Assembly: GCA_949294945.1 (NCBI GenBank)
Contig: CASFJB010000003.1
Coordinates: 1 to 53,451, forward strand
Reading direction: 5' to 3'
Source: an uncultured Eubacteriales bacterium
Lineage (GTDB): Bacteria > Bacillota > Clostridia > Oscillospirales > Oscillospiraceae
DNA: 53,451 bases
Shown: in pieces, positions 486 to 53,451 of the stretch
Position numbering within the stretch: the first letter of the stretch is position 1
Layout of the letters: every line of letters starts with the position of its first letter
The notes under the pieces: model-generated
What the model was told of the DNA's origin: nothing
What the model saw: the letters and a program-made list of their open reading frames with translations, nothing else
Database searches by the model: none
Program-made: the position numbers and the translations under genes

Positions 486-2876
486 CTACTGTCTCACGGC
501 GCAGCGTTCGCCGCCCAGGATGCCGGGAGCCGTACACAGGGGCAGCTCCTCTTCCCCGCCGCGCACCAGAGCCAGGTTCAGTATATTGTCCACATGCTCC
601 GTAGGCAGGAAGTTAAGCTGCTTTCTCACCAGGGGGTCTATCTTCTCCAGGTCGGGTTCGTTCTCTGCGGGGATGATGACGGTCTTGACTCCGGCTCTCA
701 GGGCCGCCATGGTCTTTTCCCTCAGCCCGCCTATGGCCATTACTCGGCCTCTCAGGGTTATCTCCCCGGTCATGGCAATGTCATGGCGCACCGGTATGCC
801 CGTAAGGGCGGATATCATGGCGATGGTCATGGTGATGCCGGCAGAGGGACCGTCCTTGGGAATGGCCCCTTCCGGGAAGTGGATGTGTATATCCTTTTTC
901 TTATGGAAGTCCGGGTCAATGCCCAGCATATCCGCCCGGCTGCGTATATAGCTTAGCGCGGCCTTGGCGGACTCCTTCATGACCTCTCCCAGGTTGCCGG
1001 TGAGCTCCAGGTGGCCGGAGCCGTCCATAACGGCCACCTCCACATCCAGGACTTCACCGCCCACTGAGGTGTAGGCCAAGCCTCTTACCAGGCCCACCTC
1101 ATCCCGCAGCCGCAGCTCGTCGGCCTTGTATTTGGCGGGACCCAGTACGCTCTCCAGCTGACCGGCCTTCAGGCTAAGGCTCTTGAACTTCTCCTCGGCA
1201 ATGCCGCTGGCGGCCTTGCGGCAGGCGGCGGCGATCTCCCGTTCCAGAAGTCTCACGCCGGACTCCCGGGTGTAGGAGCGTATGATCTCCCGCACTGCGG
1301 CGTCCTCTATGCGCAGCTGGTTTGCTCTCAGCCCGTGCTTTTTCCGCTGCTTGGGTATCAGGTGCTCTTTGGCTATCTGAAGCTTTTCCTCGTCGGTGTA
1401 GCTGTTGAGTTCTATTATCTCCATCCTGTCCAGCAAAGCTCTGGGTATGGTGTCCAGAGAGTTGGCGGTGGTGATGAAGAAAACTTCGGAGAGGTCAAAG
1501 GGAATTTCCAGGAAATTATCTCTGAAGGCGTAGTTCTGCTCCCCGTCGAAGGCCTCCAGAAGGGCGGCGGAGGGGTCGCCCCGGTAGTCGGAAGCCAGCT
1601 TGTCGATCTCGTCCAGGACCATCAGGGGGTTGCAGCTGCCCGCCTGGATGATGCCGCTGATGATGCGGCCGGGCATGGAGCCTATGTAAGTGCGCCGGTG
1701 GCCCCGTATCTCCGCCTCATCGTGGACGCCTCCCAGAGAAATGCGCACCAGCTTGCGGTTGGTGGCCCTGGCTATGCTCTGGGCTATGCTGGTCTTGCCG
1801 GTGCCCGGAGGCCCCACAAGGCAGATAAGGCCGCCCTTTATATCCGGGCTCAGCTGCTTTACCGCCAAATACTCGCAGATGCGCTCCTTAACCTTTTCCA
1901 GGCCGTAGTGCTCATCGTCCAGGATCTTTCTGGCCTTGGCGATGTTTATAGTCTCCTGGGTCTTTTTCCCCCAGGGGATCTCCAGACAGGTGTCCAGATA
2001 GCTGCGGATGACCGCCGCCTCGGAGGAACCGAAGGGCTGCTTGGAAAGTCTGCCCAGCTCCTTGTTCAGGCGGGCTCTTATCTCGTCACCGACAGGGAGG
2101 GCCTCTATCTTGCCGCGGTAGCTCTCAATGTCGTCATCCTCGCCCAGCTCGGCCTGGATGACCTTCATCTCTTCCCGGAGATAGTACTCTCTCTGGTTGT
2201 GGTTCATGGCCTCCTGAGTTGCCTCATTCAGCTCTTTTTCGATGTTCAGCACTTCCAGCTCGGCGCTGAGGAGGCGGCAGAGCAGGGCCAGCCTGCGGCT
2301 GGGGTACAGCTCCTCCAGGACCCGCTGCTTATCCTCCATGGCAAAGTGGACGTTCTGGGCCACATAGTTGGAGACATAGCCGGGCTGGGGATTTGCCAGC
2401 AGGTTCAGCAGCTGCTCGCTTATCATATCCTGATTGAAGTGGATGTATTCCTCAAAGAGGGAGATGCAGTTTCTCAGCAGCGCCTCTTTTCTGGCGGCTC
2501 CCACCCGTTCTTCCTTATCCGGCAGAGGGATTATCTCTGCGGTGTAGCCCTTGGGGTCGCAGTTGATGCCGATGAATTTGGCCCTGTACAGACCCTCCAC
2601 CATCACCCGGCATACGCTGCCTCTGGGCTGGCGCAGTTGCTGGCGGATGCGGCAAACCGTGCCCACCTGGTAGACGTCCTCCTCCTGGGGCATATCTGCG
2701 GTGAGGTTCTTCTGAGTAGAGAGGAAGATGAGCTGTCCATATTTTGCCGCCATGGCAAGAGCGCCCACGGAGGCCTGCCGCTCCACGTCGAAGGTCAGCA
2801 GCATTTCCGGGAATACATGCAGGCCTCTCAGGGCCAGCATTGGCAGGGTCTTGGTTTGAATACTGTTGTCGATCAT
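486..2876 (-). CDS. lon: ATP-dependent Lon protease (LonA type)
   Basis: 796-aa ORF with an N-terminal LON domain, Walker [10 protein letters not shown] and protease serine motif PKDGPSAG. It sits in a tig-clpP-clpX-lon context. Confidence 0.96.
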
Positions 2877-2904
2877 GTTATCCTCCTTTCCGGAGATGGG
2901 CCGC

Positions 2905-4155
2905 TCAGCTCCGGCGGTGCTCCACGATGGGCTCTGCGCCCTGGTTCACTGACTGAGCGGTAATGATTATTTTGCTGGCGCTGGCATCGGAGGGCACGGA
3001 ATACATCACGTCGGTCATGACGCCTTCCATGACGCTTCTCAGGCCTCTTGCGCCTATCTTCATTGCAATGGCCTTGTCGGCAATGGCCTCCAGGGCCTCA
3101 TCCTGGTATTCCAGCTCCACGTTGTCCATGGCCATGAGGGAGCGGTATTGCTTGGTCATGGCGTTCTTGGGCTCGGTGAGTATGCGCACCAGATCGTCCC
3201 GGTTGAGACTCTCCAGGCTGGCTACCACCGGCAGGCGGCCGATGAGCTCAGGAATGATGCCGAACTGGAGCAGGTCGTGCTGCTGGACCTGGGCGAATAT
3301 CTCTCCCACGTCCCGGTCGGCCCGGCTGGTGATCTCGGCGCCGAAGCCCATGGTCTTTTTGTCGGTGCGCTTTTCTATTATCTTATCCAGGCCGTCAAAG
3401 GCTCCGCCGCAGATGAACAGGATGTTGGTGGTGTCCACCTGGATGAATTCCTGATGCGGGTGCTTGCGGCCGCCCTGGGGCGGTACGTTTGCCACGGTAC
3501 CCTCCAGCAGCTTCAGCAGCGCCTGCTGCACGCCCTCGCCGGATACGTCCCTGGTGATGGAGGTATTCTCGCTCTTGCGGGCTATCTTGTCGATCTCGTC
3601 GATATAGATGATGCCCTTCTGGGCTCTCTCCACGTCGAAGTCCGCCGCCTGCAGCAGCTTCAGGATCACGTTCTCCACGTCCTCGCCCACGTAGCCCGCC
3701 TCGGTGAGAGTGGTGGCGTCGGCAATGGCAAAGGGCACATCCAGCATCTTGGCCATAGTCTGGGCGAAAAGGGTCTTGCCGCTGCCGGTGGGGCCGATGA
3801 GCAGTATGTTGCTCTTTTGCAGCTCCACCTCGTCCTCCACAGGATGGAGGATGCGCTTATAGTGGTTGTATACCGCCACGGACAGCACCTTTTTCGCTCT
3901 GTCCTGGCCGATGACATAGTCGTCCAGCCTGGCCTTTATCTGCATGGGCTTAGGGAGCTTGGCGAACTCCAGGGGCAGCCCGTCATAGCCGGTGAGCTGG
4001 GAAGTTTCCTCGGCCTCCCCCACAATACTGGCGCACATGCGCACGCACTCGTCGCAGATATAGCAGTTGTTGCCCGCTATCATCCGCTCCACCAGGGACT
4101 GGGGCTTGCCGCAAAAAGAGCATCTTATGCTTCTTCTGTCTTCATTTCTAGCCAT
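2905..4155 (-). CDS. clpX: ATP-dependent Clp protease ATP-binding subunit ClpX
   Basis: 416 aa with zinc ribbon CSFCGK...CDEC and Walker A GPTGSGKT. The length and context are typical. Confidence 0.97.
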
Positions 4156-45778: not shown

Positions 45779-47944
45779 TCATCCGTACTGTTCGGACACA
45801 TAGATGGAGGCCCTGGACTGGATAAGCTCCACCGTTTCCTCCAGGCTCTTGTCCCCGGCCAGGTAGGCCTGGCCGCATTCCAGGATGATGTCCCTCAGCT
45901 GGCTGTCGGAGCAGCGTTCGGCGCCTTGGGTGTTTTCCAGCAGGCCCATGAACCGCTCCACCTGTTCCCCGCTCAGCTCCTCCTCCGCCATGCGCAGCAG
46001 GGCCTGTCGGTTCACCGGCAGGCAGTATTCAATGTCCATCTGCTTGTCCATGGACAGCTGCTCCTTTATAAAGGCCCAGGCTCCCTCCTTGTTGGCGGAG
46101 TTTGCCGGTATGGCCATGCTGCCACCGTAGTCGCAGTTGAAGCAGCTGAAGCCGCTGCCCCCGTCGGGGAAGCCCACAAAGGCGCAGGGCTCGCCGAAAA
46201 GCTCATCCAAGGCCTTCAGCCTTGCGGGACTGGAGATAGGCTCCACAGACAGCACCACCTGGGAGAACTCCAGGTAGGGCACGGCGCTGCCCTCCTCCAC
46301 CGCATCCCCCATGGCGCTGCACCAGGCCAGAAGCCCGGCAAAGGAGGCATCGTCAAAGCTGCACCGGGCATTCTCCCTGTCCACATACTTTACCGTCCCC
46401 AGCTGAGCCACCCATCTGAGCATATTCTGCTTGTCCATAAAGGTCATGAACACAGCCTCATACCGGTCGCTCTGCTCCAATATCTCCTGGTAATCCTGAG
46501 GGCTGAGATTTTCCCGGCCCTCCACGTCGGAGGCCCTGGCCGCCAGGGTATCCACGCTCACCCCGGCCCATAGCTCGTGGAGCTGCTCCCCGTCGCTGAG
46601 AGCCTCCAGTATGCCTGGGATGAAGTCCTCCCGGCCAATGTCCGCATCACTGTCTATATAGCCGTACAGGTTTTCATAGGCGGCGGAGCTCACGTTCAGG
46701 TTGTTGTTGAAAATGATAAGGTCTATCTTTCCCCCGGCAGCCAGGTCGGCCAGCAGCCTCTGCTCTTCGTCCTTGCCATACTCGGTTATCTCGTAGATAT
46801 AGGGGCCGCCCTTCATATTCAGCTCGTAGGCGTTGCCCACTGCGTTGGAGTTGCCCATGTCGTAGAGGGCCAGCTTCACCGTGCTTTTCTCCGTGACAGG
46901 CTGCTCCACCAGACCCGTGACCAGCATATAGTCCTCCACCAGGGTGCAGATAAAGAAGTTCTCACTGAGGCGGCAGGCAAATTCGCAGCTGCCAATGTAA
47001 GCGCTGTAGCTCCACTGGTAGAGCTCTCTTGTGCTGCCCGTCTCCACGTCGCAGGCCACGAAACGGCCTTCCGAGGAGACGATATATTCCCCCTCCAGGT
47101 TCTGGCATGTGCACCAGTTGGGCACGCTCACCGTTCTGTTTTCCCCCGGGTCCTTATAGCTCAGCTCCCTCAGGCTGTCCGGGCTCTCCATCAGAAAGTA
47201 TTTGAAAGCGTCCCTCTCATTCATGGCCAGCACCACTCCCTGGGCGGTGAGCTGCATGGAGTACACCTCAGCGTTTTCCCGCCGTATAGTGCTGATATCC
47301 TCCGTCTGCCAGGGGAAGGAGGATACATAGTCATTACCCATGAGATAGACCCGCTTTGAGGCGTCCACCACTATGCATGAGGCCCATCCCTCCTGCCAGC
47401 CGGATATCTCCATCTTGTCCAGCAGTTCCCCTTGGGGCGAGTATTGCAGTATGGCTATTCGGCCCTGGTAGTCCTCGTTGGTATAGACTTCATAGCCCCG
47501 CATATAAATTGGGGCATGCTCTCCCGCCAGCACATAGAAGCAGCCGTCTCCCCCGGCGGTGACGCAGTATACCGAATCATTGTAGGGCGGCTGGACATCC
47601 AGAGGCAGCAGCTCCGTCTCCCCGAATTGGGGGACGCCGCCCTCCGGGATCTCATAATTCGTCAGGGCCAGCACCGGCACGCCGTCCTGATAGCCGCTGA
47701 GCAGCAGCTTGTGGTCTATCCGGGCAATGCCCCGCACGGAGCAGCCCGCAGGCATGGGGTATTCCTTTTTGGAATAGAACACCGGCTCCGTCTCCACGTT
47801 CTCCGTCTCTTCCTGGACGGTGTTCTGAGCCTGGGGTGCAGCCTCCATGTCCCCCGTCTCTGCGCTCTCCCCGGTCTGTCTGCCGCAGCCCAAAAGGGAA
47901 ATGACCAGAACCAGGGCCAACAGCATGGATATAGCTCTTTTCAC
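45779..47944 (-). CDS. lipoprotein with a C-terminal solute-binding-protein-like domain and an uncharacterised N-terminal ~350 aa
   Basis: Lipobox LVISLLGC. The C-terminal half resembles family-1 extracellular solute-binding proteins (AIPANSANKEGAWAFIKEQLS). No ABC permease or ATPase gene is nearby. Confidence 0.6.
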   Translation of the reverse strand: MKRAISMLLALVLVISLLGCGRQTGESAETGDMEAAPQAQNTVQEETENVETEPVFYSKKEYPMPAGCSVRGIARIDHKLLLSGYQDGVPVLALTNYEIPEGGVPQFGETELLPLDVQPPYNDSVYCVTAGGDGCFYVLAGEHAPIYMRGYEVYTNEDYQGRIAILQYSPQGELLDKMEISGWQEGWASCIVVDASKRVYLMGNDYVSSFPWQTEDISTIRRENAEVYSMQLTAQGVVLAMNERDAFKYFLMESPDSLRELSYKDPGENRTVSVPNWCTCQNLEGEYIVSSEGRFVACDVETGSTRELYQWSYSAYIGSCEFACRLSENFFICTLVEDYMLVTGLVEQPVTEKSTVKLALYDMGNSNAVGNAYELNMKGGPYIYEITEYGKDEEQRLLADLAAGGKIDLIIFNNNLNVSSAAYENLYGYIDSDADIGREDFIPGILEALSDGEQLHELWAGVSVDTLAARASDVEGRENLSPQDYQEILEQSDRYEAVFMTFMDKQNMLRWVAQLGTVKYVDRENARCSFDDASFAGLLAWCSAMGDAVEEGSAVPYLEFSQVVLSVEPISSPARLKALDELFGEPCAFVGFPDGGSGFSCFNCDYGGSMAIPANSANKEGAWAFIKEQLSMDKQMDIEYCLPVNRQALLRMAEEELSGEQVERFMGLLENTQGAERCSDSQLRDIILECGQAYLAGDKSLEETVELIQSRASIYVSEQYG

Positions 47945-47983: not shown

Positions 47984-48784
47984 TTAAAAACCTTTTTTCC
48001 CCATAAGATAGCGCTTCCTGTATTTCAGCTCCACGTAGTCCATTATTTTCTTGTAATACACCGGGTTTGCCGCCCCGCCGACGACTCCCACTATGGGCAG
48101 GCCCTGGACGAATTTAAGCAGCAGCATATCCAAGGCGAAAGCGGAAGAAGTCACTTCTATCTGCCTTTCCAGCTCCTCATCCCTCACGCTTTTACCGCCT
48201 GCCGGGAGAAGCAGGTCCACTTCCCGGTCCCGCCGCTCATAGTCCTCCCCGCTGCTGAGGGAGGCGGCGAGCATTTTAAGGATGAGCAGCTTTTCAAAGT
48301 CCGACTTATATTCAAAGCCGTAGCTCAGGGCCGTCTCATACACGCCCCTTAGCAGCATGGCTATGAACAGCACTATGTCCGGCAGGCCTATGCCCAGGAC
48401 TCCCAGGCCCAGGCCCTCCGCCGTGGTCACGGTCATGTTCACCAGCCGGGAGCGGCGGGCCCCCTTGAAGAGCTGCCGCAGTTCCCGGCGGCCGCCCCAG
48501 GCCCGGAAGGCATAGTCCCTGACGCTGTGCTCCGTGGTGATCTTATCCACGGCATAGCTCTTTTCTATAATTGCTCCGCCCCGGTCGAACACCAGGGCAA
48601 AACCCTTGCAGAAGGCCGCCTCCAGGCCGGCGTACACCTTTTTCGGCACCTTCGCCTCCAGGCTCTCCTTCCACTTTGACCCCCTGCGCTTTGCAGCGGC
48701 GGCGGCCAGCTTTTCCTCCCGCTTCTCTATCAGGGCCAGCTCCCTGTCCACCGGGGTGCGGGGCCTTTTCCCTTTCAGCAGCAT
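47984..48784 (-). CDS. EcsC-family protein
   Basis: 266 aa whose overall pattern (N-terminal KREEKL, AAFCKGF, central hydrophobic GLGVLGIGLPDIVLF) matches EcsC-like proteins as I recall them. Confidence 0.55.
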   Translation of the reverse strand: MLLKGKRPRTPVDRELALIEKREEKLAAAAAKRRGSKWKESLEAKVPKKVYAGLEAAFCKGFALVFDRGGAIIEKSYAVDKITTEHSVRDYAFRAWGGRRELRQLFKGARRSRLVNMTVTTAEGLGLGVLGIGLPDIVLFIAMLLRGVYETALSYGFEYKSDFEKLLILKMLAASLSSGEDYERRDREVDLLLPAGGKSVRDEELERQIEVTSSAFALDMLLLKFVQGLPIVGVVGGAANPVYYKKIMDYVELKYRKRYLMGKKGF

Positions 48785-49221
48785 AAGTCCTCCCCTTCTG
48801 CCGGGCCCTCCCCCAGCTTTAAATTTATTCCGTATATATCCTCTATGGCTACGGCGCTGCCGTCGGCCATTATGAGTTTCCCCTCATATTCGTCTATCTT
48901 CTTCACCCGGCCGCCGAGGGTGACCAGAGCGCCTCCGGCCTTCCGTTCATCCGCTTTGAAGCAGACTATCTCCGCCTCAGGCCGCTCCTTTATATGCTCC
49001 CTGAGCCTGCGAAGCTCCCGGTCCAGCTCCTCTATCCGGTCCCCGGCCAGCTCTGTTTTGCTATCGGTGAGGCGGGCGGCCTCCTCCACCGCCTCCTCAT
49101 AACCTGTGAGGGCGGCAAAGGGGGCGAACTGGGCCGCCCTGTCCCCCACCGGCATCGGCGCATGCAGCCTGGAGACTGGATGGGGCAGAGCGATTATATC
49201 ATCATATTTTCCTGCTCTCAT
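48775..49221 (-). CDS. YolD-like protein (accessory to Y-family polymerase)
   Basis: 148 aa with MPVGDRAAQFAPFAALTGYEE, typical of the YolD family. Its start overlaps the polymerase stop. Confidence 0.7.
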   Translation of the reverse strand: MRAGKYDDIIALPHPVSRLHAPMPVGDRAAQFAPFAALTGYEEAVEEAARLTDSKTELAGDRIEELDRELRRLREHIKERPEAEIVCFKADERKAGGALVTLGGRVKKIDEYEGKLIMADGSAVAIEDIYGINLKLGEGPAEGEDLCC

Positions 49222-50717
49222 GCTCTGTGCCCCCCTATCTGGCGGTTCCTGTCCCGGCCTGTGGCCCCCTCCTGGTAGCTGGTGCCGTGGAGTATGGCGT
49301 TCTTGCCGTATTTCTTTTTTATCTTCAGCATGGCCTGCTGCCTTTTTTCCTCCCGCGCCAGGGCTGCGCTGTCCATATCCCGGCAGTCCTCCGGCTCCCC
49401 GAAGAGGTCCAGCTGCCGAAAGCAGCTTTCCTCCCCGGCGCCCTTCGGCTTCACGTTTGCGGCCACCACATACATCCGCCGGACCTGGAGCTTTCTATCC
49501 ACTATCCTGTCAAAGAGCTCCAGGGTCATCTCCGTTATCAGCCGGTTGGAGGAGCTGAAGCGGCCCAGATTCACGGAGCCGTGGGCCGCCTTGGGGATAT
49601 CCCTCCCGTACAAGTCGGTTTTCACTTCTCCCTCAAAGCTGCTGCCTCTCCCCAGCATCTCATAGCCCACGGTGAGGACCATCTGGTCGGTGACCAGGCC
49701 CTTGTCTGCCAGGTCCAGCACCAGGGCATCCGTCATCTCCCGGACTATCATCCGGGCCCCGTTGAAATCATAGGGCTGCTGGAGCACCTGGCCGCTGCTG
49801 ATGCTGTTGGTCTCCGGCCTGTAGCTCTTTATGTCCTTTATGGTGCAGGGCTCCCAGCCCCAGGCGTGGTCTATAAGCAGCTGGGCGTTGACGCCGAAGA
49901 GCTTATACAGCAGCTCCTCATTGTAATAGTCCCCGGCTCCCCCCAGGGAGCAGCGGGCTATATCCCCCATGGTATAGAGGCCCACGGCCTCCAGCTTTTT
50001 CGCATAGCCCCGGCCTACACGCCAGAAGTCCGTCAAAGGCCGGTGATTCCATAATATTTGACGGTAGCTGTCCTCATTTAGTTCCCCTATACGCACCCCG
50101 TCTTTATCGGCCTTTGCCCGCTTTGCCACCACGTCCATGGCCACCTTGCACAGGTACAGGTTGCTGCCTATCCCCGCCGTAGCAGTGATGCCGGTCTGCT
50201 CCAGTACCTCATGTATCATCAGCCGGGCAAAATCATGGGCGGAGATATTCCTGGTCCTGATATAGTCGGTGACGTCCATGAACACCTCGTCTATGGAATA
50301 GACATGTATATCCTCCGGGGCCACGAAGCGGGTGTATATGTTATAGATGCGGGTGCTGTATTCTATATATTTTGCCATCCTGGGCTTTGCCACGATATAG
50401 TCCAGCTCCAGAGCCGGATCTCCCTTCAGCTCCCCGGCGCTGAAGGACTTGCCGCCAAAGTCCCCGCCTTTCAGCCGTCCCCGGCGGCGGGCATTTTCCG
50501 TCTTTACCTGCTGCACCACTTCAAAGAGCCGGGGCCGGCCCGGGATGCCTATGGCCTTCAGGGACGGGGACACCGCAAGACAGATGGTCTTTTCCGTGCG
50601 GCTGCTGTCCGCCACCACCAGGTTTGTGTCCAGAGGGTCCAATCCCAGCTCCGCGCACTCCACCGAGGCGTAGAAGGACTTCAAGTCTATAGCTATATAA
50701 GTACGCTCTCCCACCAC
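49218..50717 (-). CDS. Y-family translesion DNA polymerase (UmuC/UvrX/DinB-like)
   Basis: 499 aa with YIAIDLKSFYASVE (catalytic Asp) and SIDEVFMDVT (the SIDE motif). It uses a GTG start. Confidence 0.88.
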   Translation of the reverse strand: MVGERTYIAIDLKSFYASVECAELGLDPLDTNLVVADSSRTEKTICLAVSPSLKAIGIPGRPRLFEVVQQVKTENARRRGRLKGGDFGGKSFSAGELKGDPALELDYIVAKPRMAKYIEYSTRIYNIYTRFVAPEDIHVYSIDEVFMDVTDYIRTRNISAHDFARLMIHEVLEQTGITATAGIGSNLYLCKVAMDVVAKRAKADKDGVRIGELNEDSYRQILWNHRPLTDFWRVGRGYAKKLEAVGLYTMGDIARCSLGGAGDYYNEELLYKLFGVNAQLLIDHAWGWEPCTIKDIKSYRPETNSISSGQVLQQPYDFNGARMIVREMTDALVLDLADKGLVTDQMVLTVGYEMLGRGSSFEGEVKTDLYGRDIPKAAHGSVNLGRFSSSNRLITEMTLELFDRIVDRKLQVRRMYVVAANVKPKGAGEESCFRQLDLFGEPEDCRDMDSAALAREEKRQQAMLKIKKKYGKNAILHGTSYQEGATGRDRNRQIGGHRA

Positions 50718-50750
50718 TGTTCACCGCCTTAATTTTCCTAACGCGATAAT

Positions 50751-50779
50751 ATTATAGCATATATTGTCTTAATTGGCAA
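50751..50779 (-). promoter_or_regulatory. candidate sigma-A promoter TTGCCA-17-TATAAT for the polymerase operon
   Basis: On the minus strand, TTGCCA lies at 50779-50774 and TATAAT at 50756-50751. Confidence 0.5.
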
Positions 50780-50820
50780 TAGCGCTTTATAGCCGCCATA
50801 AAAGCCTATGGGGAAAAGGC

Positions 50821-50850
50821 ATAAAAGATCCCCGGCCGGAAAGGCCGGGG
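50821..50850 (-). terminator. intrinsic terminator after the VanZ gene
   Basis: CCCCGGCC-GGAAA-GGCCGGGG hairpin. The minus strand continues ATCTTTTATGCCTTTT. Confidence 0.65.
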
Positions 50851-50856
50851 AGCAGT

Positions 50857-51333
50857 TCAGGAAAACCTGTCTCTGTCTATTCGTTTTTCTATGAAGCGCT
50901 CAAATATCACGGCACAGAGCCAGAGCCCCACCATATAGCCGCAGAAATCCAGCAGCACGTCCTGGACCTGGGAGCCCCGGCTGGAGATGAGCTGCAGGGA
51001 CTCGTCAATTACGGCGGCGGAGAGCCCGGCAAAGGCACAGTTAACGTAGCCCTGAGGGCCCTGCTTGTCTCTCAGGTGCAGCAGCAGACTGAACTCGGCG
51101 CCCAATATGCCGAACTCCACGAAATGGGCCAGCTTTCTTAGGAAGTGGTCGCTCTTTGGTGAGAGGTGTATGCCCAAGACCCTCAGCAGCTCCACTATTC
51201 GCTCCAGCAGTCCCTGGCTCACAGCCTGGGACTCCGCCCTGGGCATAAGGGAGTTGACCCAGATAAAGGCCAGAGTCAGGGCTATGAGTATCTTGATAAG
51301 GCGGCAGAGCCGCTCATAATCCCGTTTATCCAT
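50857..51333 (-). CDS. VanZ-family membrane protein
   Basis: 158 aa with 4 TM segments and FLRKLAHFVEFGILG, typical of VanZ-like proteins. Confidence 0.8.
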   Translation of the reverse strand: MDKRDYERLCRLIKILIALTLAFIWVNSLMPRAESQAVSQGLLERIVELLRVLGIHLSPKSDHFLRKLAHFVEFGILGAEFSLLLHLRDKQGPQGYVNCAFAGLSAAVIDESLQLISSRGSQVQDVLLDFCGYMVGLWLCAVIFERFIEKRIDRDRFS

Positions 51334-52136
51334 CAGTCTTTATACTCGAACATCAAATCGTACATGCTCACGGTGTCCCCGTCCTTCACGCCCATCTCCT
51401 CCATGCGCTGGCCGACAGACATCTTTTGAAGCCGCTCATAAAGGGCATTGAGCTCCTTGGACTTGATGGCATCTTTGGGTTTCTTGTCGAGCAGGCGATG
51501 AGCCTTGTTGATGTTACCGCCCGACCCGATGAGGGCCGACGGCCGGTAACGACTGGCTTTCTCACCCAGCCACGCGGCGAACGCCTCTTCCTCGCTGGCC
51601 GAAACGGCCCCGCTGATGTAACGCACGGTTCCCAAGCGGAAAGAGCGGGCCTCTACTTGACGGTTCTCGGCATAGACGACAACTTCGGTGGAGCCTCCTC
51701 CCACGTCGATATAGAAATAGGATTTCTCCTTGTCGAGCACTTTTTCGAGGCCGCCGGCCTCATATATCGTGCGGGCTTCGGTATTGCCATCGACGATGGT
51801 GATGTCGATACCGCAAGTGCGGGCTATCGTCCCGGCCACCTCGGCCCCGTTTTCCGCCTCGCGCATGGCACTGGTGGCGCAGGCTTTGTAAGCATCGATG
51901 TCGAACGTCTTGAACAAGGCGGCAAAGGCCGACATGGCTTGCGTAAGCGCCGCCACCTTCCCGGGTGTGACATGCCCGAGCGAGAAAACATCTTCGCCCA
52001 GACGTATGGGCACCCGCACAAAGGCGGCTTTTTTAAACTCAGGAGCATCATACTCCTCGACATAGTCAATAAGAAGGCGTATGGCGTTTGAGCCGATGTC
52101 GATGGCTCCAAACGTGTATCTCTTCGGTTCCTGCAT
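51333..52136 (-). CDS. ppx: Ppx/GppA-family phosphatase N-terminal (ASKHA) domain protein, C-terminally atypical
   Basis: YTFGAIDIGSNAIRLLI and YIDVGGGSTEVV phosphate-binding motifs. The ORF ends at 267 aa with a non-Ppx tail, GVKDGDTVSMYDLMFEYKD. Confidence 0.75.
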   Translation of the reverse strand: MQEPKRYTFGAIDIGSNAIRLLIDYVEEYDAPEFKKAAFVRVPIRLGEDVFSLGHVTPGKVAALTQAMSAFAALFKTFDIDAYKACATSAMREAENGAEVAGTIARTCGIDITIVDGNTEARTIYEAGGLEKVLDKEKSYFYIDVGGGSTEVVVYAENRQVEARSFRLGTVRYISGAVSASEEEAFAAWLGEKASRYRPSALIGSGGNINKAHRLLDKKPKDAIKSKELNALYERLQKMSVGQRMEEMGVKDGDTVSMYDLMFEYKD

Positions 52137-52187
52137 ATCTGCCTTTCGTTAGTAGTGTGTATTCGATTCCGGGAACGTCCCTGACAA

Positions 52188-53451
52188 TTATTTCTCGTAA
52201 TTCGACAAGCGGCCGTAATACTCATATAGGGCCGCCTGGCTGCGCAAAGGTTCTTCGCCCGGGGTGGGGTGCACATAGGTATTTTGGTGCCCCTCGTCGA
52301 GCAGACGTGCCTTGACCGTGTCGTGCCATTGTATGTCGAATACCTCCCGGGCCTTTTTGCGTATGACCTCGTCGTAGAGCGGCACACACACTTCGACACG
52401 ACGGTCGAGGTTGCGTGCCATCCAGTCGGCGCTTCCCGTGTAGATAGTCTCATGGCCTCCGTTGCAGAAGATATAGAGACGGGCATGTTCGAGGTATTTG
52501 TCGACGATGCTTATTGCCCGAATGTTCGGGCTCAACCCTTCGACCTGCGGCAAGAGGCAACAGGCGCCGCGCACGATAAGGCGCACTTCGACCCCGGCAC
52601 GTCCGGCCTCGTAGAGTTTCTCGATAATCCCCACATCGGTGAGCGAATTGCACTTGGCATAGATATAGGCTCTTTCGCCCTTGCGCGCATGATGTATCTC
52701 GTTATCGATCTTATCATAAAACTCTTGCCGCATGTAATAAGGCGAGACCATCAGGTGCTTGAAGGTAAACTGCTTGTGGCTGTTCGACAAGAAAAGAAAC
52801 ACATTGAGGACATCTTGCGTAATCTCGGCATGGGAAGTGAAAAGCCCGAAATCGGAATAGATGAGCGCCGTGTTTTCATTGAAATTTCCGGTTCCGATAT
52901 AGGCATAACGTTTCAACCCGCGATGCTCCCGGCGTTCGACGAGGACCACTTTGCTGTGCACTTTGAGGTCTTCCATGGTGTGGAGTATCTTCACGCCCTC
53001 GCGTTGCAGGAGGTCGGTATTTTCCATGTTCTGTTCCTCGTCAAAGCGGGCTTTGAGTTCGAGCATGGCATAGACCTTCTTGCCGTTTTTCACCGCATTG
53101 ACCAAGGCGTTTATCACTTTGGAATGTTCGGCCGTACGGTACAGGGTGATGTAGATGCTCTCGACACGGGGGTCGATGGCGGCTTCGCGCAGGAAATCGA
53201 TAAAGTGCTGGAAAGTGTGGTAGGGATAATTCAGGAATATATCGCGCCGGGCAATGACGTCGAGGATACTCGAAAAGAGGGAAATCGAGGGGTGTTGTAT
53301 GGGTTTCTGCTGGGTATAGAGGAGGTCGGGACGCACCTTGGGAAACTTCATGAGGTCTTTCATCATGTGATAGCGTTCGCCGGGAGCCAACATTTCGACA
53401 TTGTCGAGGCCGAGTTTCCCGGCCAGGATTTCGACCATGTCGACCGGCATG
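52188..53451 (-). CDS. ppk1: polyphosphate kinase 1, C-terminal ~420 aa (N-terminus beyond the window)
   Basis: Two PLD-like modules (LKVHSKVVLV, YLEHARLYIF) with PPK1-type spacing. The ORF is open to the window edge. Confidence 0.88.
   Translation of the reverse strand, partial: MPVDMVEILAGKLGLDNVEMLAPGERYHMMKDLMKFPKVRPDLLYTQQKPIQHPSISLFSSILDVIARRDIFLNYPYHTFQHFIDFLREAAIDPRVESIYITLYRTAEHSKVINALVNAVKNGKKVYAMLELKARFDEEQNMENTDLLQREGVKILHTMEDLKVHSKVVLVERREHRGLKRYAYIGTGNFNENTALIYSDFGLFTSHAEITQDVLNVFLFLSNSHKQFTFKHLMVSPYYMRQEFYDKIDNEIHHARKGERAYIYAKCNSLTDVGIIEKLYEAGRAGVEVRLIVRGACCLLPQVEGLSPNIRAISIVDKYLEHARLYIFCNGGHETIYTGSADWMARNLDRRVEVCVPLYDEVIRKKAREVFDIQWHDTVKARLLDEGHQNTYVHPTPGEEPLRSQAALYEYYGRLSNYEK

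Follow-up and report, generated by a model that had tools for sequence, protein, structure and literature searches.

Bacteroidales ppk1–ppx DNA joined in frame to an Oscillospiraceae obg gene at a contig end: a very probable interspecies assembly mis-join in a metagenome-assembled genome

Introduction

Chimeric joins in metagenome assemblies have been documented as contigs whose phylogenetic profiles differ between the two sides of the join (Chen et al. 2020, PMC7111523). In CAMI data, one or more chimeric contigs were reported in 69% of near-complete MAGs assembled with MEGAHIT and in 21% of near-complete MAGs assembled with metaSPAdes (DeepMM preprint, bioRxiv 10.64898/2026.10.15.759294). 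The contig considered here resembles the interspecies chimeric contigs of short-read metagenome assemblies (PMC7111523; 10.64898/2026.10.15.759294) in carrying sequences of two organisms with two phylogenetic and compositional profiles; as in the published examples, the marker-based contamination of the genome stays low (2.2%), and foreign annotation enters the MAG. Nothing essential distinguishes it from those examples, although this case, known from sequence alone, is unusually tidy, with an in-frame word that leaves an uninterrupted ORF.

The closest described relatives of the two sides of the join are the ppk1–ppx gene pair of Bacteroidales of the Candidatus Caccoplasma type and the Obg protein of Bacillota with the OCT domain (PF09269), encoded in the arrangement rplU-rpmA-obg. 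Residues 1–248 of the ORF at the join, together with the ppk1 fragment beside them, align collinearly with the Bacteroidales pair at 99% DNA identity, but, compared with the intact pair, Ppx is without its last 52 residues and ppk1 without its first 268. Shared with the obg locus of same-genus genomes are the last 25 residues of the ORF and the stop–start overlap with vanZ, and rpmA is located before the 5′ part of obg on another contig of the same MAG (C16). In contrast to obg of Bacillota, the gene is split here between two contigs and lacks its middle 192 codons.

A transfer island or a recombination scar would likewise be sharply bounded and foreign in composition. Unlike such a structure, the locus has a single boundary, no mobility genes and truncated cargo, it would imply the interruption of an essential gene, and it is found in no other assembly.

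Genome and Sequence Composition

The window, i.e., the whole stretch of DNA analysed, is the complete contig C3, 53,451 nt in length, of a metagenome-assembled genome (G000) comprising 2.21 Mb in 228 contigs, with an estimated completeness of 85% and an estimated contamination of 2.2%. The source organism is an Oscillospiraceae-type gut bacterium. The anomaly in sequence style is confined to the last 2 kb of C3, at a contig end.

The window contains 99 copies of the tetranucleotide TCGA, 35 of which are located in the tail at positions 51412–53451 (2,040 nt). This corresponds to about 1 per 58 nt, and the sequence-only reading made earlier by eye had estimated one per 50–60 nt. Outside the tail, TCGA occurs at about 1.2 per kb, and none was counted in positions 45781–46380, as that reading had stated. 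At the rate of the remaining window, 2.5 copies would be expected in the tail (Poisson P(≥35) = 7e-28), while AGCT was found there once against 14.5 expected. The tetranucleotides CAGC, CCAG and CTGC are also depleted in the tail, and CGAC, CGAG, ATCG and CGAA are enriched. A scan of the whole MAG gave a mean of 2.5 TCGA per 2,040-nt window (n = 9,078 windows) with a maximum of 18 elsewhere than in the C3 tail; in composition, no other part of the MAG deviates as far as this tail. Among all MAG contigs checked, none has more than 3 TCGA per kb overall, and a 21-mer search for the tail sequence on the remaining MAG contigs revealed no contig sharing it.

Codon usage of the tail differs from that of the native genes, represented by four neighbouring genes (chi-square 171, 52 degrees of freedom, p = 1.5e-14), in agreement with the difference in codon choice that had been noticed by eye. 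The native genes prefer CTG, ATA, AGG/CGG and AGC/TCC, whereas the tail prefers CTC, ATC, CGC/CGT and TCG and is devoid of AGG. GC content and GC skew over 44–53.4 kb showed no clear step at the join; since both are nearly flat, the break is visible in tetranucleotides and codons and not in GC. Of the two sliding-window profiles suggested earlier, the tetranucleotide profile thus revealed a break (35 TCGA versus 2.5), whereas GC skew hardly changes.

Hybrid ORF and Gene Order

All features at this end of the contig are encoded on the minus strand. The native gene vanZ (158 aa, positions 50857–51333) encodes a protein with a VanZ domain (Pfam, E = 6.4e-15), and the same gene follows intact obg in the genome G006 and in five more genomes of the same genus. 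It is preceded by a hybrid ORF of 267 aa (positions 51333–52136), composed of Ppx residues 1–242, the residues QRMEEM (243–248) common to both proteins, and an Obg tail (249–267). The 5′ part of ppx, codons 1–242 of 300, occupies positions 51412–52136 and is foreign, of the Candidatus Caccoplasma (Bacteroidales) type. It is followed by the 20-nt junction word CCAGCGCATGGAGGAGATGG (positions 51392–51411), which is common to the Bacteroidales ppx and obg of the native type. The 3′ end of obg (positions 51333–51391), comprising the last 19 codons, GVKDGDTVSMYDLMFEYKD, and the stop codon, falls within PF09269, is native and is not present in the donor. The ATG of vanZ overlaps this stop codon by 1 nt. 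Upstream of the hybrid ORF, the foreign 3′ part of ppk1 (positions 52188–53451; the last 420 of 688 codons), containing the Pfam domains PP_kinase_C_1 and PP_kinase_C, is cut by the end of the contig.

In the hybrid ORF, Pfam domains Ppx-GppA and PF09269 (DUF1967, the Obg C-terminal domain) were identified at residues 44–174 and 227–265, respectively. Both are partial: the PF09269 match covers only profile positions 31/32–70 of 70 and is not a whole OCT domain, and the Ppx/GppA match (PF02541) covers profile positions 20–148 of about 285, short of the full two-domain protein. The intact Ppx of the donor type is 300 aa in length, and the last 52 authentic Ppx residues are replaced in the hybrid; the earlier estimate that Ppx is about 40 aa short was roughly right. 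The Obg-like ending noted in the same reading is evident both from the PF09269 match and from the last 25 residues of the ORF, which are identical to the end of Obg of G006 (QRMEEMGVKDGDTVSMYDLMFEYKD).

Among about 15 billion proteins, the exact 267-aa hybrid is recorded for a single contig, which is this window. All 13 of the other Ppx cluster members among those listed (15 of 41) are 300 aa in length, and the intact 300-aa forms among the members listed are present on 3 to 149 contigs each.

Origin of the Foreign Part

The Ppx part of the hybrid has 83–84% amino acid identity to proteins of Bacteroidales MAGs. Candidatus Caccoplasma intestinavium and a complete chromosome named ‘uncultured Bacteroides’ are among these matches, and Candidatus Caccoplasma merdavium is among the members listed of the Ppx cluster at 90% identity.

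For the donor search, metagenome contigs were scanned once with a 30-nt pattern from the sequence immediately beyond the junction, which returned one contig, ERZ780178 NODE_6633 (L096), of 5,129 nt, with a coverage of 1.9 according to its name. An ungapped alignment of 2,060 nt with 19 mismatches (99.08% identity) links it to positions 53451–51392 of the window and ends exactly at position 51392. Past the junction word, the donor contig carries on as an ordinary 300-aa ppx, the product of which is present on 56 contigs. The gene ppk1 of this contig (688 aa, positions 2069–4135) precedes ppx and is collinear with the fragment in the window. The comparison proposed earlier for the tail gave Bacteroidales at the protein level and an independent contig at the DNA level.

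Of 100 other genomes of the Oscillospiraceae genus, 39 carry a native ppk1. The notion that ppk1 is as such a trait alien to the genus was rejected on this count.

Native Part and the Split obg Gene

In genomes of the same genus, DNA similar to vanZ and the end of obg was found, and none of the matches extends beyond positions 51409–51417. The vanZ–obg stretch was matched in 10 of 168 genomes of the genus, with G000 itself counted. In the six genomes examined (G148, G146, G111, G092, G006 and G150), an uninterrupted obg of 427 aa is located directly upstream of vanZ, and at the Obg end of the hybrid ORF the DNA shares 89–99% identity with the 3′ ends of obg in these relatives. An arrangement of ppx next to vanZ in orthologous genomes, which would have spoken for a natural gene order, was not found; intact obg adjoins vanZ instead. 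A VanZ cluster-mate at ≥90% identity carries the name ‘Oscillospiraceae bacterium’, and the identical VanZ protein is on record from three further contigs.

As the sequence-only reading had suggested, the remaining contigs were searched for a complete obg, and none was found in the MAG; the missing 5′ part is located at the start of C16. The sole Obg N-terminal domain found in the MAG is encoded at C16:155–616 (minus strand). This obg, with rpmA before it, begins at C16:631 and leaves the contig at position 1 after residue 210, so that C16 opens inside obg, with no foreign DNA attached. A tblastn search of the MAG with Obg of G006 located residues 1–210 on C16 (98.6% identity) and the C-terminus on C3, whereas residues 211–395 gave only distant GTPase paralogues. 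Residues 211–402 are absent from all MAG contigs. Since the two pieces of obg are located on C16 and C3, the native order is C3 (to about position 51411), followed on the same strand by about 576 nt missing from the assembly and then by C16. The place expected for the middle of obg is taken by the foreign 2,040 nt.

The split gene bears on a real recombination, in which, in some or all of the population, Bacteroidales ppk1–ppx DNA would have been integrated in obg at 20 nt of microhomology. Such an event, which is very unlikely, would truncate obg, a gene held to be essential, and no second obg was found in the MAG; moreover, C16 begins within obg without foreign DNA, and in all six relatives examined obg beside vanZ is intact. 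On the other hand, both organisms share the gut habitat, and a foreign composition that has not been ameliorated is equally expected of a very recent transfer.

Junction Word

The junction was analysed in an alignment of eight sequences, in which the window and the donor contig were set against obg of the six relatives. The window is the same as the donor through CCAGCGCATGGAGGAGATGG and after that word follows obg of the relatives, while the donor contig departs from the window from position 51391 onward. The word encodes QRMEEM in the same frame in ppx and obg, and because of this the hybrid ORF stays open. The proposal that a native obg 3′ end with vanZ behind it is joined in frame to foreign, Bacteroidota-like ppx–ppk1 DNA is thereby substantiated, since the Pfam domains, the relatives, the Bacteroidales matches and the alignment all agree.

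These data also bear on the possibility that there is no chimera, i.e., that the tail is native DNA of odd composition and Ppx naturally ends in an Obg-like motif. The occurrence of native ppk1 in other genomes of the genus would fit this explanation; however, the tail is 99% identical to a contig of Bacteroidales type, the last 25 residues of the ORF are those of Obg of G006, the underlying DNA matches obg 3′ ends of the relatives, and no other part of the MAG is compositionally so extreme. The donor alignment, obg of the relatives and the junction alignment refute this explanation, which is practically out of the question.

Exact words of this length are not exceptional. A BLAST comparison of 670 kb of unrelated loci with the 2.2-Mb MAG revealed six exact words of at least 20 nt common to both and no exact match longer than 22 nt. 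Extrapolated from these six, a second whole genome should share a few tens of such words with the MAG. Accordingly, 20-nt exact words common to unrelated DNA are ordinary and frequent by chance. A short microhomology at the junction is equally expected of a very recent transfer, and if illegitimate recombination had taken place very recently at these 20 nt of microhomology, the sequence would be identical.

Second Join in the Same MAG

Scanning of the MAG for the style of the C3 tail picked the starts of the contigs C4 and C77. The region C77:200–1821 encodes HemD and a DUF4271 protein. Next to it is a hybrid ORF of 584 aa (C77:1828–3579, minus strand), composed of a fragment of V-ATPase subunit I and a complete LOG-family protein. 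Over its last 195 residues, this ORF has 90% identity to the LOG protein of Barnesiella viscericola (195 aa), beginning from Met1 of that protein. For the 584-aa hybrid, a single contig is recorded, and for the intact 195-aa forms up to 166 contigs each. The native part of C77 was matched in 55 of 60 genomes of the same genus, and nearly all long matches begin at positions 2398–2399. C77 from position 1 to about 2412 is assigned to hemD-DUF4271-LOG DNA of Barnesiella viscericola, in frame with the native gene of V-ATPase subunit I.

A common donor for C77 and C3 was rejected, as the DUF4271 protein of C77 is only 31–32% identical to the DUF4271 proteins of Caccoplasma-like genomes and belongs to Barnesiella. 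Together, C3 and C77 indicate that contig ends of one assembly were joined in frame at least twice, in these two cases to DNA of different Bacteroidales donors. A join of the same kind with a different donor on an unrelated contig points to software and not to biology, which argues against recombination at C3.

The start of C4 (position 1 to about 1250, encoding a HAD hydrolase) is rich in TCGA. No match to it was found in three Caccoplasma-like genomes, the first 3.5 kb of C4 had no match in 60 genomes of the same genus, and the exact HAD hydrolase protein is absent from protein records.

Origin of the Join

The end of C3 is very probably an interspecies assembly mis-join, in which Bacteroidales DNA was placed on an Oscillospiraceae contig, and not a gene transfer; this follows from sequence comparison. 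The two sides belong to different lineages, the composition changes abruptly between them, both parents are intact elsewhere, and the parents have an exact word in common, as is characteristic of chimeric contigs. A mis-join is favoured because the foreign DNA has a single junction and runs to the contig end, because obg of the MAG is divided in the way expected of a mis-join, and because the same error recurs at C77. Of the two causes considered in the earlier reading, a contig mis-join is therefore favoured, and a recombination or transfer scar disfavoured.

The true chromosome probably has the order dinB-like gene, vanZ, obg, rpmA. During assembly, the middle of obg (residues 211–402, about 576 nt) would have been left out, and at CCAGCGCATGGAGGAGATGG the assembler would have switched to reads of a co-occurring Bacteroidales species of the Candidatus Caccoplasma type, the ppx gene of which by chance holds this word in the same reading frame. 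The switch would have added 2,040 nt of ppk1–ppx DNA, as far as the contig end. The join may stem from a de Bruijn graph built with a small k, as the 20-base overlap equals k−1 for k = 21; k = 21 is a common smallest k in assembly. Read support across positions 51392–51411 would then be lacking. The Ppx–Obg hybrid ORF is almost certainly a by-product without biological existence.

The structure of the foreign segment likewise argues against recombination. A horizontally transferred island would have native DNA on both sides and would recur, whereas here there is one junction, the foreign DNA ends with the contig, and the hybrid was not found in the relatives examined. Neither captured gene is complete, mobility genes are absent, and the hybrid protein, known from this one contig, has no counterpart in other assemblies. 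A real junction, formed when a sub-population of the Oscillospiraceae bacterium took up Bacteroidales ppk1–ppx by microhomology-mediated illegitimate recombination inside obg, is scarcely probable; if true, it would represent cross-phylum DNA uptake in the gut caught as it happened.

Significance of the Mis-Join

With the end of C3 read as a mis-join, the public MAG would hold at least two interspecies joins that were not flagged by marker-based checks. These joins would supply the false hybrid protein of the MAG and its only ppk1/ppx annotation, and would mask the adjacency of C3 and C16. The hybrid sequences are now present in the NCBI and ENA protein collections. Reading of sequence style by eye can place such joins within about 20 bases. 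For the biology of the organism, the finding would mean very little: neither a Ppx–Obg fusion protein nor a gene transfer should be attributed to this Oscillospiraceae bacterium.

Ends of other contigs

A second interspecies join is present in the same metagenome-assembled genome, namely at the start of contig C77, where positions 1 to approximately 2412 (1-2412 in the examined stretch L106) are occupied by hemD-DUF4271-LOG DNA of Barnesiella viscericola. The native gene for V-ATPase subunit I is joined in frame to this DNA, forming a hybrid ORF of 584 aa on the reverse strand (L106:1828-3579), the sole recorded source of which is contig C77. Nearly all long same-genus matches start at position 2398-2399 of the contig.

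The start of contig C4, from position 1 to approximately 1250 (stretch L105), contains 18 TCGA within ~850 nt and little AGCT; this TCGA-rich stretch covers a gene for a HAD-family hydrolase. No matches to the first 3.5 kb of C4 were found among 60 same-genus genomes, and no matches to the hydrolase were found in three Caccoplasma-like genomes. The start of C4 may represent a third foreign end or else an accessory region.

TCGA is moderately increased (14-17 per 2 kb) in contigs C67 (10.0-12.8 kb) and C18 (6.6-10 kb), with AGCT at normal levels in both regions.

On the reverse strand of contig C16 (1-631, stretch L003), obg follows rpmA and is cut off by the contig start after 210 codons. C16 probably adjoins C3 in the genome, with a gap of ~576 unassembled bases.

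Codon usage and distribution of ppk1

The commonest isoleucine codon is ATA, both at positions 47984-51333 of the window and in long ORFs of the whole genome, which is unusual at a genome GC content of ~57%. ATA accounts for 73% of isoleucine codons in the four native genes adjoining the foreign tail of C3 and for 43% in a crude genome-wide selection of long ORFs.

The gene ppk1 (PF13090) is patchily distributed in the genus, being present in 39 of 100 other genomes, and its sole copy in the studied genome is the foreign fragment.
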